A DNA stretch of 25,893 bases from a virus, in UHGV virus genome UHGV-1613375. One strand, 5' to 3'. This document shows positions 1 to 7,745 of the stretch, in pieces. Within the stretch, counting starts at the first letter, position 1, and every line of letters begins with the position of its first letter. The notes under the pieces were generated by a model that searched no databases, was not told the origin of the DNA, and was given only the letters and a program-made list of their open reading frames with translations. Position numbers and translations under genes: made by a program.

Positions 1-759
1 GCTGGCGCATTGTCTGACTGGTTACTGCGCCATGTTAAATCCTGCCAGTGGCCACACGGCGATTATCACCACAGTGAAACCGTCATTCACCGTTATGGTG
101 CCGGCGCAATGGTGTTGTGCTGGCACTGCGATAACCAGCTGCGCGATCAGTTCACGGAACGGCTGGAATCAATGGCAACGGATAACTGTGCCCGCTGGGT
201 GTTGTCTGTTGTGCGTCGGGATCTCGGTTTTGATGATAGTCACGTTGTGACAATGCCGGAACTGTGCTGGTGGCTGATTCGTAATGACCTGGCGGATGCC
301 TTACCGGAAAGTGCAGCCCGTAAGGCACTGAGATTACCGAAGCCTGTTGTGCCATCTGTCACCCGGGAAAGTGACCTTGTGCCTTCAGTTCCTGCCACCA
401 GCATCATCCAGGATAAAGCGAAAAAGGTGCTGGTACTGAAAGTGGATCCGGAGTCGCCGGAGTCTTTTATGTTACGCCCAAAACGTCGCCGCTGGGTTAA
501 TGAAAAGTACACGCACTGGGTTAAGACGCAGCCGTGCGCATGTTGTGGAAAGCCTGCTGATGATGCCCACCACCTGATAGGTCACGGTCAGGGTGGAATG
601 GGTACAAAAGCGCATGACCTCTTTGTGTTGCCTTTGTGCAGAAAGCATCACGACGAGCTGCATGCGGATACCGTGGTATTTGAAGAGAAGTATGGCTCCC
701 AGTTGGAGCTGATATTTCGTTTTATTGATCGTGCGCTGGCAATTGGCGTGCTGGCGTAA
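1..759 (+). CDS. DUF968/YdfU-like prophage protein with C-terminal Cys/His (HNH-like) motif; 5' end truncated by the window
   Basis: Frame is open from nt 1 with no in-window ATG start; the track start at 10 is TTG. C-terminus has CACCGKP...HHLIGH...CRKHHDELH, a zinc-ribbon/HNH-like arrangement. Sits directly upstream of a Q-like gene, as ydfU does relative to quuQ in the Qin prophage (recalled, not searched). Confidence 0.5.
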   Translation, partial: AGALSDWLLRHVKSCQWPHGDYHHSETVIHRYGAGAMVLCWHCDNQLRDQFTERLESMATDNCARWVLSVVRRDLGFDDSHVVTMPELCWWLIRNDLADALPESAARKALRLPKPVVPSVTRESDLVPSVPATSIIQDKAKKVLVLKVDPESPESFMLRPKRRRWVNEKYTHWVKTQPCACCGKPADDAHHLIGHGQGGMGTKAHDLFVLPLCRKHHDELHADTVVFEEKYGSQLELIFRFIDRALAIGVLA

Positions 760-773
760 GTGGAGAACTCTAA

Positions 774-1352
774 ATGATTAATCCTTCTGAAATTGGCAAA
801 ACGGGTGAAATGGTTCGTCTTCGTACTCTGGAAAGTATCTGGGTTCAGGGGAAGCTCCGCATGTGGGGGCGTTGGTCTTATATCAGTGGAGGGACTAGCG
901 GTAACATGTTTAACCAACTGCTTGTATCCAGCAAAATTACCAAAACTGCAATCAACGATGCGCTGCGCCGTATGAAAAAGTCAGGCATTACGAAACCAGA
1001 GCTCGAAGCTTATTTGCGCGAAATACTCAACAGTAAAAACAAAAGTAGTCTGGCGTTTTGCTCGGACGATGAAGGCCTGAAGATTGACGGTGTGATCGCC
1101 TCGGTGCTGATGAATAATGATTACCGTTCTCTATACGGTGTGATTGTTGGCCGGTATTGTCTGCGTAAGAGCAAGTTGCAAATGGCCAATGAGCTTCATA
1201 TTAAACATCCTGACTGGGCGCTCATTACCTGTCGCCGCCGAGTTGACACATGGATAAGTTTGGCCGAATCGCTCCTGTACGCTCCACTATGTGATGCGTT
1301 TGGCACAAATAGCGACAGATTTAAATTGCAAAGTGAGCAAGAAAGTGCTTGA
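774..1352 (+). CDS. Putative late-gene antitermination protein Q
   Basis: 192-aa ORF with GGAG 8 nt upstream of the ATG. Lies between the nin-region protein and the lysis cassette and is followed by a terminator hairpin, the canonical Q / PR' / tR' position. Family assigned by position and general resemblance only. Confidence 0.5.
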   Translation: MINPSEIGKTGEMVRLRTLESIWVQGKLRMWGRWSYISGGTSGNMFNQLLVSSKITKTAINDALRRMKKSGITKPELEAYLREILNSKNKSSLAFCSDDEGLKIDGVIASVLMNNDYRSLYGVIVGRYCLRKSKLQMANELHIKHPDWALITCRRRVDTWISLAESLLYAPLCDAFGTNSDRFKLQSEQESA

Positions 1353-1402
1353 ATTGTGATAAGCTCGGGACGAAAAGCGAACTGAGCAACATAATAGTAA
1401 GA

Positions 1403-1430
1403 ACCCGCCATTGTGCGGGTTTTTGCGTTT
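1403..1430 (+). terminator. Rho-independent terminator (tR'-like) downstream of Q
   Basis: ACCCGC(1403-1408) / GCGGGT(1415-1420), 6-bp stem with 6-nt loop CATTGT, followed by TTTTGCGTTT. Confidence 0.6.
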
Positions 1431-1491
1431 AGGAAAGGCTTGCCAAAAAGAATGATGTTATAGTTTTCGAAAAAAATGCAGGAGAATAAAA

Positions 1492-2906: not shown

Positions 2907-2935
2907 AGGCTGCCTTCGGGTGGCCTTTTTATTTC
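2907..2935 (+). terminator. Rho-independent terminator after the NTPase gene
   Basis: AGGCTGCC(2907-2914) / GGTGGCCT(2919-2926), 8-bp stem including two G-U pairs, UUCG tetraloop, then TTTTTATTT. Confidence 0.7.
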
Positions 2936-2979: not shown

Positions 2980-3315
2980 ATGCCTCATAACCCAAATACT
3001 TGGCCGGACTGGCTGGAGTTGTTCCAGAGCTGGTGGCGTGGAGACACCCCGCTGGGGGCAGTGATTATGTCGATCGTTATGGCTGGTTTGCGTATCGCCT
3101 ATTTTGGCGGAGGTGGTGGCTGGAAGCGAAAAACGCTCGAGATTTTGCTCTGTGGTGCTCTGACGCTGACTTTTGCATCCGCGCTTGAGTATGTCGGATG
3201 GCCTAAATCGCTTTCTGTTGCCATTGGTGGTGGCGTTGGGCTGATCGGTGTTGATGCCATTCGTGGAGCTGCAATGCGAGTAATCGGTAATAAGTTTAGT
3301 GGCTCTAAGGAGTAA
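2980..3315 (+). CDS. Holin, divergent lambda S-like, three predicted transmembrane segments
   Basis: 111 aa immediately upstream of the endolysin. Three hydrophobic segments and a charged C-terminus; the LR..Y.GG....K pattern resembles lambda S (recalled). Confidence 0.65.
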   Translation: MPHNPNTWPDWLELFQSWWRGDTPLGAVIMSIVMAGLRIAYFGGGGGWKRKTLEILLCGALTLTFASALEYVGWPKSLSVAIGGGVGLIGVDAIRGAAMRVIGNKFSGSKE

Positions 3316-3318
3316 TTT

Positions 3319-3795
3319 ATGCAGATACTAAATTCCCAGCGTAAAGCTTTCCTCGATATGGTGGCATGGTCAGAAGGAACGGATAACGGACGGCAGAAAA
3401 CCAGAAATCATGGTTATGACGTCATTGTAGGCGGAGAGCTATTTACTGATTACTCCGATCACCCTCGCAAACTTGTCACGCTAAACCCCAAACTCAAATC
3501 AACAGCCGCCGGGCGTTATCAGCTTCTTTCACGCTGGTGGGATGCTTACCGTAAACAGCTTGGTTTGAAAGACTTCTCCCCCAAAAGCCAGGACGCAGTG
3601 GCATTGCAGCAGATTAAAGAGCGTGGCGCTTTACCGATGATTGATCGCGGTGATATTCGTCAGGCTATCGACCGTTGCAGCAATATCTGGGCTTCACTGC
3701 CGGGGGCTGGTTACGGTCAGTTCGAGCATAAGGCTGACAGCCTGATTGCAAAATTTAAAGAAGCTGGCGGAACGGTCAGAGAGATGGAGGCATGA
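3319..3795 (+). CDS. R: Endolysin, lambda R-type lytic transglycosylase
   Basis: 158 aa, near-identical over most of its length to lambda R as recalled ([47 protein letters not shown]...). Confidence 0.95.
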
Positions 3796-4259
3796 GCAGA
3801 GTCACCGCGATTATCTCCGCTCTGGTTATCTGCATCATCGTCTGCCTGTCATGGTCTGTTAATCATTACCGTGACAACGCCATCACCTATAAAGACCAGC
3901 GCGATAAAAAAGTTAGTGAGCTGCAGCTGGCGACCGCCACCATTACTGACATGCAGCAGCGCCAGCGTGATGCTGATGCACTTGATGCTAAATACACGAA
4001 GGAGTTAGCTGATGCGAAAGCTGAAAATGATGCTCTTCGGCGCAAGCTTGATAATGGTGGTAGGGTGCTCGTCAAAGGCAGATGTCCAGTGCCAGCCACA
4101 ACAAAAGCCTCCGGCACCGCCAGCGTGGGCAATGATGCCACCGTCGAACTCTCTCCAATTGCTGGACGAAACCTTCTCGGTATCAGATCCGGAATTATCA
4201 GAGATCAAGCATCATTGAGAGCGTTACAGGAATATATTGACACTCAGTGTCGGAAGTAA
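3792..4259 (+). CDS. Rz: Inner-membrane spanin Rz (i-spanin)
   Basis: ATGA overlap with the R stop. N-terminus [31 protein letters not shown] matches lambda Rz (recalled); N-terminal TM segment followed by a coiled-coil-like region. Confidence 0.9.
4012..4218 (+). CDS. Rz1: Outer-membrane lipoprotein spanin Rz1 (o-spanin), embedded in Rz in the +1 frame
   Basis: [19 protein letters not shown]: signal peptide with lipobox Cys, then a proline-rich segment ([13 protein letters not shown]), closely resembling lambda Rz1. Fully nested inside Rz. Confidence 0.85.
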
Positions 4260-4364: not shown

Positions 4365-4973
4365 ATGGACTATTTTTACATAGCAACTAAATCGCAAAAT
4401 CCTTGGGTTAAGTATAGGCCTTTGGCAGTAGGAGATTTAGCTAGCACCTCATTCCCAAATCCCTTTTTTAATTATTTCTTAAGTTCAAACATCCCTCCAA
4501 TACCAGTAAATGTTAACGGGCATCTAACTGACTATACGAGAATGCAGTGGCTTTATGGCCTAAAGACAGGGTCACTTACTACTAAGTGTTCTGTACAGGA
4601 TATAGCGGCAGTTGGTCAAGAATTGGCTATGCATTTTTGTAAATATACTAGAGAACTGATTTGGGAAGCCGTTCGAGTTGAATATTACCCAAAAAAGCCT
4701 TCAAGACAGAAATGCTTATGGGTTTCACAAGGTGAAGAAAGTCTTTACTATTGGATTTCGCAGTTGGGATTGGGGGACAATCAGACTGTGTTCAGAGTTG
4801 AGTTGGATGGAGTTATACATGAGGCGAGTGATGAACATTTGATGAATGACGATATACCGTATGATATTGCCTTAGAAAAAGCTCATAAATATTGGAGTGG
4901 TGAAATAGTTGATCCGTTAAAAAAGGAAATACTTTTTGAAGGAAATATGCGGATTCTAGAGCACATTTTATAG
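4365..4973 (+). CDS. Hypothetical protein, AT-rich cargo gene between lysis cassette and HNH/terminase; no recognisable motif
   Basis: 202-aa ORF in an AT-rich island (by eye) with AT-rich flanks, followed by a weak hairpin plus T6. No signal peptide, TM segment or catalytic motif recognised. Confidence 0.6.
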   Translation: MDYFYIATKSQNPWVKYRPLAVGDLASTSFPNPFFNYFLSSNIPPIPVNVNGHLTDYTRMQWLYGLKTGSLTTKCSVQDIAAVGQELAMHFCKYTRELIWEAVRVEYYPKKPSRQKCLWVSQGEESLYYWISQLGLGDNQTVFRVELDGVIHEASDEHLMNDDIPYDIALEKAHKYWSGEIVDPLKKEILFEGNMRILEHIL

Positions 4974-6015: not shown

Positions 6016-7745
6016 GCCGGAAATCTTACCCCAACGTAAATGCTGCCAATCAGTATGCCCGTGATGTCGTGCGCGGAAAGATTGTGGCCTGCCAGTTTGT
6101 GATTCAGGCCTGCCAGCGCCATCTTGATGACCTGATGGAGGAAAAAAGTAAGTTGTTTCGTTACCGCTTCGACAAGGACCTGGCTGAACGGGCCGCGAAA
6201 TTTATTCAGCTGTTGCCGCACACCAAGGGTGAGTGGGCATTCAAGAGGATGCCCATCACGCTGGAGCCGTGGCAGCTCTTTGTGATCTGCTGTGCGTTTG
6301 GCTGGGTCAATAAAGGCTCCCGGCTGCGCCGCTTCAGGGAGGTGTATACCGAAATCCCTCGTAAGAACGGCAAATCGGCAATCTCTGCCGGTGTTGCCCT
6401 GTATTGTTTTGCCTGTGATAACGAGTTTGGCGCGGAAGTGTATTCCGGTGCCACGACAGAGAAACAGGCGTGGGAAGTCTTTCGCCCGGCTCGACTGATG
6501 TGTAAACGCACACCCATGCTGACGGAAGCGTTCGGGATTGAGGTTAACGCCTCAAACATGAACCGTCCGGAGGATGGCGCGCGGTTTGAACCGCTGATCG
6601 GTAACCCCGGTGATGGTTCATCACCCCACTGTGCGGTGGTGGATGAATATCACGAGCACGCCACCGATGCGCTTTATACCACGATGCTTACCGGGATGGG
6701 GGCGCGACGTCAGCCACTGATGTGGGCTATCACCACCGCCGGATACAACATTGAGGGGCCGTGCTACGACAAACGGCGGGAAGTCATCGAGATGCTCAAC
6801 GGTTCGGTACCCAACGATGAACTGTTCGGGATCATCTATACCGTTGATGAAGGTGATGACTGGACCGACCCGCAGGTGCTGGAAAAAGCCAATCCAAATA
6901 TTGGCGTGTCGGTTTATCGCGAATTTTTGTTAAGTCAGCAGCAGCGTGCGAAAAATAACGCCCGTCTGGCAAACGTCTTTAAAACAAAACACCTCAATAT
7001 CTGGGTGTCGGCGCGTTCGGCGTATTTCAACCTGGTGAGCTGGCAGAGCTGCGAGGATAAATCATTGACCCTTGAGCAGTTCGAGGGGCAGCCGTGCATT
7101 CTGGCCTTTGACCTGGCGCGTAAGCTGGATATGAACAGCATGGCGCGACTTTATACCCGCGAGATTGACGGTAAAACGCATTACTACAGTGTGGCCCCGC
7201 GTTTCTGGGTACCGTATGACACGGTGTACAGCGTCGAGAAAAATGAAGATCGACGGACAGCCGAACGCTTTCAGAAATGGGTGGAAATGGGCGTTCTGAC
7301 CGTTACCGATGGTGCGGAGGTGGATTATCGCTACATCCTCGAGGAGGCCAAAGCGGCGAACAAAATCAGCCCGGTCAGTGAGTCACCCATCGACCCCTTC
7401 GGGGCGACCGGGTTGTCACATGACCTTGCTGATGAAGACCTGAACCCCATCACTATCATTCAGAACTACACCAACATGTCCGATCCGATGAAAGAGCTGG
7501 AAGCGGCGATTGAATCGGGGCGCTTTCATCATGACGGCAATCCCATCATGACCTGGTGTATCGGCAACGTGGTCGGCAAAACCATTCCTGGTAACGATGA
7601 TGTGGTGAAGCCTGTCAAGGAGCAGGCGGAAAACAAAATCGATGGTGCGGTTGCACTGATTATGGCGATCGGTCGGGCAATGCTCAAAGAACCCGACGAT
7701 TTCCTCTCATCTCTTGATCCGGACGATGCTCTCTTAATTCTATGA
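6012..7745 (+). CDS. Terminase large subunit
   Basis: 577 aa in canonical position after TerS; ATPase plus nuclease-sized protein with acidic motifs ([16 protein letters not shown]) consistent with terminase. Confidence 0.85.

Follow-up and report, generated by a model that had tools for sequence, protein, structure and literature searches.

In Shiga toxin (Stx) phages the late promoter PR' fires constitutively and its transcripts end at tR' in lysogens; besides PR', stx1 is served by a promoter of its own, Pstx1, and in an Stx2a phage a promoter is located between tR' and stx2 (PMC7547250). The genome of Gifsy-1 has the order antQ - isrK - orf45 - anrP - isrJ - lysis region (PMC4825925). The Tai defence gene of phi80 is apparently constitutive in the lysogen, whereas Q is required by the late operon next to it (PMC11364771). 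In this study, we analyzed a window of 25,893 nucleotides from the virus genome UHGV-1613375 (the window being this whole stretch), which makes up the late region of an Escherichia coli prophage, lambdoid and SfV-like, and carries, on one strand, a gene for a Q-like antiterminator, a terminator hairpin (T1), a gene for a putative AAA+ ATPase, a second terminator hairpin (T2) and the lysis genes. The analysis centres on how the ATPase gene is transcribed, and the promoter question decides when the ATPase can act. Extra genes of this kind in lambdoid phages are known as morons, which were reportedly defined by Juhala et al. in 2000 in the comparison of HK97 and HK022, with lambda bor and lom and HK97 gp15 as examples.

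The locus resembles the Q cassettes of phages lambda, 21 and 933W in that a Q-family protein is encoded shortly ahead of the lysis genes, the end of Q is abutted or overlapped by a promoter-like block, a -10-like element follows about 10-11 bp past the candidate -10, and a terminator stands about 50 nt past the Q stop codon. It differs from them in that its Q, of the DUF1133 type, is no more than a distant relative of those of 21 and 933W, in that the promoter block lies mostly inside the Q reading frame, and in that the late genes are guarded by T1 and T2 in tandem. With the Stx phages it shares a cargo gene between the Q terminator and the lysis genes that can be reached by antitermination and by a local promoter (a candidate in the window), but the cargo is an ATPase and not a toxin, T2 isolates the lysis genes, and whereas Pstx1 is controlled by Fur, the local promoter of the window would be a bare extended -10 with no known regulator. 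As with lambdoid morons, the extra gene is absent where the flanks of relatives adjoin, is poorer in GC, stands between a promoter-like site in front and a terminator behind, and would be expected to be expressed from a repressed prophage; unlike in morons, this terminator is a backbone element common to cargo-free relatives. Gifsy-1 likewise has a Q-like gene, a short terminated constitutive RNA, accessory genes and then lysis genes, and two relatives with a DUF1133-type Q (loci L119 and L129) have isrK and a C4-type RNA right after Q, whereas no isrK or C4 match was found in the window and its isrJ match is sub-threshold. Finally, Tai of phi80 is a prophage accessory gene apparently on in the lysogen beside Q-dependent late genes, as we infer for the ATPase, but it is located upstream of the packaging genes, where it overlaps with a gene for counter-defence, and a defence role of the ATPase is hypothetical.

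We consider it probable that the locus is a Q-dependent late switch with a self-sufficient cargo cassette, a moron, between two terminators, the ATPase being made from its own promoter in the lysogen and by Q read-through as well. The original prediction, which was made from the letters of this DNA, had proposed read-through together with possible autonomous control. Such dual control is the reading favoured here from the sequence, but the weight that it had placed on mainly late, stx-like expression does not agree with a conserved promoter motif in front of the gene and with homologues in places without Q. On this reading the regulatory arrangement follows a well-known pattern, that of an ordinary moron in the slot between Q and the lysis genes under dual control, and not that of toxin-like, late-only cargo.

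The ATPase gene very probably has its own small extended -10 promoter, as judged from motif and conservation. The gene starts 61 nt after the T-run of T1, close to the 60 nt given earlier, and is preceded by the expected CAGGAG. The original prediction had seen no clean sigma-70 promoter in this interval, because the spacer of TTGCCA-N13-TATAGT is too short. Both hexamers are indeed present (1440-1445 and 1459-1464, with a 13-nt spacer), but the TG at 1456-1457 had been overlooked; with it, the downstream hexamer becomes part of TGtTATAGT, an extended -10 element that is conserved across two contexts. The terminator and the read-through of the earlier interpretation stand, and the absence of a visible promoter does not. 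In extended -10 promoters the -35 hexamer is dispensable, and the element at 1456-1464 has TG at -15/-14 as well as T-12, A-11 and T-7. Among the aligned ATPase homologues (84-95% protein identity), seven homologous loci with two unrelated upstream contexts all carry an unchanged TGnTAnAnT at 27-28 nt before the ATG, and GGAGA and ATGCT, at the ribosome-binding site and the start codon, are invariant in 7/7. In the homologues with 92-95% identity, which stand behind the same T1 type, the 31 columns from the T-run to the motif are 64% identical, the motif 96% and the leader 86%; between contexts, identity is 25% upstream of the motif, 67% within it and 55% after it. Two homologues with 84-85% identity lie in another backbone with unrelated upstream DNA and carry TGATAGAAT 27 nt before the ATG; in one of these (L117) the Q position is occupied by a different protein of 201 aa, and the holin that follows the homologue also differs. 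Homology across contexts starts exactly at the TG.

Extended -10 elements of such quality number six on both strands of the 25.9-kb window, and one arises in 2.7% of shuffles of the 61-nt spacer. The same kind of element was found in other cargo of the slot, since 17 of the 47 other cargo-bearing relatives have an extended -10 within 70 nt past T1 where 4.0 would be expected, although these loci are not independent lineages; in 15 of those 17 it overlaps the T-run of T1 (TTTTTTG-T-TATGAT). A perfect palindrome (TTTTCGAAAA, 1465-1474), partly conserved in the homologues, lies at the predicted start site of ATPase transcription.

The genomic contexts of the homologues point in the same direction. 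Many Proteobacteria have homologues of the ATPase, each a single gene for about 450 aa. Some occupy the Q-holin slot in phages that differ in their Q or holin type; others adjoin a prophage repressor (Edwardsiella) or an integrase (Providencia and Erwinia), and in these last three cases no Q lies upstream. The integrase-side and repressor-side slots are cargo positions expressed in lysogens, and since homologues there adjoin integrases or repressors without Q read-through, the ATPase gene would not be dependent on late transcription. In homologues that are more distant, hexamers close to the -10 consensus precede the ATG by 33-49 nt, which in AT-rich DNA is weak evidence.

Approximately 95 loci with relatives of Q were gathered from genomes and viral contigs, which gave 70 distinct downstream sequences. 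The hairpin that the original prediction had placed about 50 nt past the Q stop codon and called tR'-like was located there, its first stem base lying at 1402, 50 nt past the end of the stop codon at 1352. The core stem AACCCGC (1402-1408)/GCGGGTT (1415-1421) is GC-rich, has 7 bp and a CATTGT loop, and can grow to 11 pairs (1398-1425); next comes TTTTTGCGTTT, a T-run of the form TTTTT GCG TTT that ends at 1430. The folding energy is -14.7 kcal/mol (z = -3.9), and 0 of 200 shuffles fold as well. A hairpin and T-run follow the Q stop codon in 67 of the 70 distinct relatives, nearly always at 46-58 nt and in a few distant ones farther away, and the stem is nearly always AACCCGC/GCGGGTT, with a loop of differing sequence and length; of the three relatives left over, two (L010 and L012) have unrelated stems at this position. 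Pair counts of covariation are uninformative here because the stem is nearly invariant, so covariation was not used, and the assignment is based on position, on the variable loops and on the two relatives with unrelated stems.

The boundary of the Q module was found at the same place. In E. coli genomes with diverged Q genes (80-85% identity), the DNA similarity spans 72 intergenic nt and ends at about 1424, homology between relatives ends at the T-run (1424-1430), and one E. coli genome that shares this Q and T1 has unrelated DNA from 1425 on. In 933W, an AACCCGC/GCGGGTT stem lies 48-70 nt past the Q stop codon, which is overlapped by the annotated pR'. The positional conservation with Q, the end of homology at T1 and the 933W counterpart make it a well supported reading that T1 goes with the Q module as its tR'-like terminator, its conservation following Q and not the cargo. 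The hairpin was also read on the reverse strand and rejected as a terminator there, the reverse tail being T-poor. In one relative (L046), about 48-99 nt after the Q stop codon, the loop of T1 is enlarged by five CCCCG repeats (AAACCCGCCCCGCCCCGCCCCGCCCCGCCCCGCCTCGGAGCGGGTTTTTTT).

The second terminator, which the original prediction did not include, lies 23 nt past the end of the ATPase gene and follows this gene in all close homologues. Terminators are annotated at the T1 and T2 positions in SfV, with two open reading frames (ORFs) between them. T1 is followed by a T2-like hairpin within 60 nt and then by the holin gene, with no cargo, in 20 of 67 distinct relatives, and the other 47 have varied cargo after T1. 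In the window, it is the ATPase cassette that sits between T1 and T2. The GC content is 39.8% in the ATPase gene and 31% in the spacer from T1 to the ATG, compared with 50-53% in the backbone. The cassette is thus absent from relatives with adjoining flanks and deviates in base composition, both of which mark it as a moron, and by the position of T2 it also has a terminator of its own; its putative promoter travels with the gene and its terminator does not. No promoter-like site was found in the interval between T2 and the holin gene.

The stretch just past T1 (1431-1446), which contains TTGCCA, aligns over a short match with GAGGGCTGCCAA of L054, a relative without cargo whose T2 comes directly after T1. 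Because of this alignment, TTGCCA is, tentatively, probably a relic of the 5' arm of T2 and not a -35 element. In addition, GGCTTGCC just past T1 resembles the T2 5' arm GGCTGCC (2907-2914), so that the cargo seems to be flanked by one decayed and one intact copy of this arm, and T1 and T2 may serve as short homologies for cargo swapping.

Several points weigh against a private promoter within a moron. No -35 element is present, the hexamers 16-18 bp upstream of TATAGT being unlike TTGACA, and TATAGT has a G at its fifth position. The promoter call is based on a 9-nt motif in AT-rich DNA, for which the shuffle probability of 2.7% refers to this spacer only. The closest homologues do not represent independent lineages, and a 76% identical homologue (L120) has no TGn motif, only -10-like hexamers. 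T2 is a phage-backbone element present in cargo-free relatives, so that it is the own terminator of the cassette only by position. The T-run of T1 is interrupted (TTTTTGCGTTT), and some Q-independent read-through is therefore possible. A literature search for transcript or start-site data on this prophage, or on prophages of E. coli sequence type 131 (ST131), found none.

Some of these points would also suit late-only expression as in stx2, in which TGtTATAGT is no working promoter and the ATPase is made by Q read-through of T1, with a lytic role and a small basal leakage through T1. The gene does lie on the path of the late operon without any gene-free gap, a motif lacking a -35 partner may occur by chance in DNA of 31% GC, the interrupted T-run could supply the leakage, and stx2 cargo at the equivalent position can depend on Q (PMC7547250). 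However, whereas such a cargo would have no promoter behind its tR', a conserved promoter-like element was found here, and it is the sole invariant element in an otherwise diverged spacer, as the identities of motif and surroundings given above show both within and between contexts. The distance from motif to ATG is constant within 1 nt, homologues occupy sites without an upstream Q or late promoter, and many other cargos of the slot carry a similar motif right past T1. Late-only expression is accordingly regarded as unlikely.

The Q-like protein was assigned by several profile matches. Pfam DUF1133 was matched with E = 2.9e-88, PF06530 (Phage_antitermQ), a recognised Q family, with 35.5 bits at a gathering cut-off of 26, and PHROG 753 carries the description 'anti-termination protein Q-like'. 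In isolated phages, relatives carry the annotation antitermination protein Q. With 933W Q the protein has a weak pairwise match (29% identity over 69 aa, E = 1e-5), and by these sequence matches the protein is placed as a distant relative of the Q21/933W family. DUF1133 was not mentioned in the literature searched.

The last part of the Q gene appears to hold regulatory DNA. Synonymous-codon entropy is about 1.0-1.3 bits along most of Q and falls to 0.23-0.39 bits in codons 171-192, where amino-acid entropy does not fall; the Leu185 codon is TTG in 78/78 sequences despite its six-fold degeneracy. The suppression of synonymous change in the last ~20 codons suggests that regulatory DNA is embedded in the gene end. 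A milder second dip of synonymous diversity was noted in codons 81-95 (1014-1058), with 0.56-0.70 bits compared with about 1.0-1.2 bits nearby. Three readings of the late promoter were weighed. The pair at 1326-1331 and 1350-1355, separated by an 18-bp spacer, gives the top mean sigma-70-type score over the 67 distinct relatives (TTGCAR...TAAATT) and is kept as the best candidate for the late promoter. An alternative at 1300-1327, which has the highest score within the window, is disfavoured, being unconserved in diverged relatives and 38 bp away from the pause-like element described below. TGnTAGGCT as an extended -10 late promoter is also less likely, since no pause-like element comes after it and the window lacks even the weak TAAAGC of relatives. 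Against the chosen pair it must be said that the family-wide best -10 has a G at the critical -11 position in the window, that the best-scoring candidate of the window is the unconserved one, and that the position given for the late promoter is approximate. The G arises because the Q stop codon is TGA and not TAA; this TGA variant recurs in many diverged relatives and so seems to be tolerated.

Just past the candidate -10 there is an invariant -10-like element (TGnTAGGCT in relatives), which we read as a sigma-dependent pause element where Q would load; it is less likely that it is itself an extended -10 promoter. Its offset from the candidate -10 is 10-11 bp, a match at the sequence level to the roughly 11-12 bp expected of a pause element. 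In lambda, the pause element lies 12 bp from the promoter -10. For Q21, an 11-nt RNA is present at pause capture (10.1101/651190). The distant DUF1133 relatives have kept the three-part block, consisting of a -35-like TTG hexamer, 16-18 bp, a -10-like hexamer, 4-5 bp and TA[AGT]G[CA]T, but shifted 23-30 nt downstream relative to the stop codon and with a stronger promoter, for example TTGACT-16-TAAATT-4-TAAGCT and TTGATT-17-TATCTT-5-TAAGAT. The leader that follows (1366-1397) is about 80-100% conserved even between Q proteins with 64-72% identity. An Rfam scan of the window gave no match at gathering score. The best sub-threshold match was isrJ of Salmonella Gifsy-1 at 1349-1424, over the full model (19.7 bits versus 37, E of about 0.1). 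It spans the predicted short late transcript, and isrJ may be the same kind of promoter-to-terminator RNA; as the match is no stronger in relatives, it is a lead only.

The G at -11 bears on a further alternative, namely that the late switch is weak or dead, because of this base or because the prophage is defective, with Q and T1 as inherited scaffolding and the ATPase expressed autonomously only. The candidate -10 is TGAATT where most relatives have TAAATT, and the element is known solely as an integrated prophage, the 2.7 kb surrounding the ATPase/Q locus being 100% identical across 56 complete E. coli genomes, many of them ST131. The protein records of the Q-like protein and the ATPase are likewise sourced to E. 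coli O25b:H4-ST131, and the ATPase was found in no isolated phage, where only 25%-identical actinophage ATPases were matched. On the other side, the TGA variant is frequent among diverged relatives, the site at 1300-1327 offers an additional good promoter-like sequence, and the window retains Q, the lysis genes and apparently intact head and tail ORFs; geometry alone guarantees co-transcription of the ATPase gene given any Q-modified polymerase. We regard a weak or dead late switch as improbable. Least probable of all is that TGnTAnAnT is kept for a reason other than initiation, as a protein-binding site or an RNA structure in the read-through 5' leader, for although a weak minimum-energy fold pairs UUUUC (1464-1468) with GGAGA of the ribosome-binding site and the palindrome lies next to the motif, that pairing has just 5 bp with two G-U, the palindrome is not conserved in L102, L106 and L108, and it is precisely the defining positions of an extended -10 (TG, T-12, A-11, T-7) that do not vary, whereas the 'n' positions do.

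Under the preferred reading of dual control, the late promoter at the end of Q (TTGCAA, TGAATT) would start transcription near 1361, and the pause element would be met about 10 bp on. In the lysogen, late transcripts would end at T1 and give a short RNA of roughly 65-70 nt. The ATPase gene would be transcribed from TGtTATAGT in the lysogen, with a leader of about 20 nt and a good ribosome-binding site. Polymerase from this promoter would halt at T2, because it has not met Q, and therefore the ATPase would be made in the lysogen while the lysis genes stay silent. Upon induction, Q would load onto polymerase paused just past the late promoter, and the modified polymerase would ignore T1 and T2, so that the ATPase gene becomes the first gene of the late operon. 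Since no path other than one through this gene is visible from the late promoter region to the lysis and structural genes, it must be transcribed by Q read-through. Promoter firing, the action of Q and the start sites are deduced in this scheme from the positions of the elements listed in Table 1.

Table 1. Positions of genes and of observed, candidate and predicted control elements in the 25,893-nt window.
Feature	Position	Strand	Basis or remark
DUF968/HNH gene	10-759	+	First gene, nin-type, ahead of Q
Q-like antiterminator gene, 192 aa, DUF1133 type	774-1352	+	Pfam, PHROG; stop codon TGA 1350-1352
Constrained block: presumed late promoter, Q-binding region and pause element	1284-1366	+	Overlaps the last ~20 Q codons
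Alternative promoter inside Q, TTGGCA-16-TAAATT	1300-1327	+	Consensus scan; 11.3 bits, highest of the window
Candidate late -35, TTGCAA (TTGCAG, TTGAAA, TTGACT in relatives)	1326-1331	+	Inferred from conservation
Candidate late -10, TGAATT (TAAATT in most relatives)	1350-1355	+	Overlaps the Q stop codon
-10-like element TGaTAAGCT (TGnTAGGCT in relatives, n free)	1357-1365	+	Invariant; four bases past the candidate -10
Conserved leader of the short late transcript (CGGGACG..AAGCGAACTGAGCA), then variable spacer	1366-1397	+	Conservation
Intrinsic terminator T1, tR'-like	1398-1430	+	Fold and conservation
Probable decayed copy of the T2 5' arm (AGGAAAGGCTTGCCAA)	1431-1446	+	Contains TTGCCA
Candidate extended -10 promoter, TGtTATAGT	1456-1464	+	TG 1456-1457, T 1458, TATAGT 1459-1464
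Predicted ATPase transcription start	1469-1472	+	5-8 nt past the -10 hexamer; promoter geometry only
Ribosome-binding site GGAG, in CAGGAG 1479-1484	1481-1484	+	Conservation; 7 nt before ATG 1492-1494
AAA+ ATPase cargo gene, 463 aa	1492-2883	+	Pfam, fold model
Intrinsic terminator T2, GGCTGCC-TTCG-GGTGGCC (2907-2926) plus TTTTTATTT	2907-2935	+	-12.8 kcal/mol
Lysis cassette, holin	2980-3315	+	Pfam and PHROG matches
Lysis cassette, lysozyme	3319-3795	+	Pfam and PHROG matches
Lysis cassette, Rz	3792-4259	+	Pfam and PHROG matches

The more interesting parts of the locus are the ATPase family and the DUF1133 branch of Q proteins. The ATPase matched Pfam AAA_16 and AAA_22 above the cut-offs and ATPase_2 and nSTAND1 below the cut-off, and its Walker motifs, GxxGxGK[ST] and DE, are invariant in 64 homologues. 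The predicted structure (predicted local distance difference test 84, predicted template modelling score 0.78) has an AAA+ base, a helical lid and a winged helix, and the top folds were Cdc6/Orc1, PAB2304, Apaf-1 and plant NLRs, with E from 1e-11 to 1e-8; no close relative was found among solved structures. By this model, the protein is classified as an AAA+ ATPase of the ORC/Cdc6-STAND type. No effector domain was recognised in it, and searches with PADLOC 2.0 and NCBIfam gave no full-length defence match, only P-loop matches of about 30 residues (mads_8, PDC-S01 and DS41_1). If the private promoter works, the ATPase would be present in all lysogens of this prophage, which many E. coli ST131 genomes contain, and this would fit a role in protecting the host or benefiting the lysogen and not one in lytic takeover. 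As a tentative extension, which we consider possible but rather doubtful, the ATPase may be an undescribed single-gene function against phages or in protection of the prophage, with its promoter-carrying cassette spreading among cargo slots in prophages and satellites (behind Q or next to the integrase or the repressor), expression that is low and constant in the lysogen, and a burst driven by Q upon induction, and DUF1133 may be a distinct Q branch whose late promoter and loading site lie largely inside its own coding sequence. In the phage locus L120, which has an ATPase homologue in the Q-holin slot, a gene of the anti-defence type (Acb2/Tad1-hairpin, 6498-6779) is located downstream of the lysis genes.

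The T1/T2 slot brackets dozens of different, mostly unannotated genes, many with a promoter-like element built into the terminator end, and it is thus a practical hunting ground for new accessory or defence genes of prophages. Ten other cargo proteins of relatives gave no convincing PADLOC or Pfam match. A recurrent family of first cargo ORFs (in L049, L044, L025, L072 and others) encodes proteins of 190-237 aa that start with M-x-W-x-G-[IV]-P and have an apparent hydrophobic stretch, possibly membrane-spanning, again with no Pfam or PADLOC match; their extended -10 motif (TGTTATGAT) and the T-run of T1 are fused. In phage Rac-SA53 (L126, 2492-3534), a DUF1133-type Q with 53% identity is followed by the pertussis-like toxin genes eplBA, a toxin cargo in the post-Q position that is parallel to stx. 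In L119 (1703-1891) and L129 (2075-2276), isrK and the C4-type antisense RNA come directly after Q. In L119 a KilA-N gene comes next, as in the antQ-isrK-anrP locus of Gifsy-1, and a block of leader plus T1 recurs there immediately 5' of the ATPase homologue.

In the window as a whole, Q has nin-type genes before it and the lysis cassette after it, all on one strand, and the lysis genes are the first late genes downstream, followed by packaging and structural genes. A minus-strand ORF at 1196-1411 was considered as a gene and rejected, no support being found for it. Between Rz and the packaging genes there is a further ORF of low GC content at 4365-4973 (37.8% GC, 202 aa, DUF2441, PHROG 9842), which looks like an additional cargo gene.

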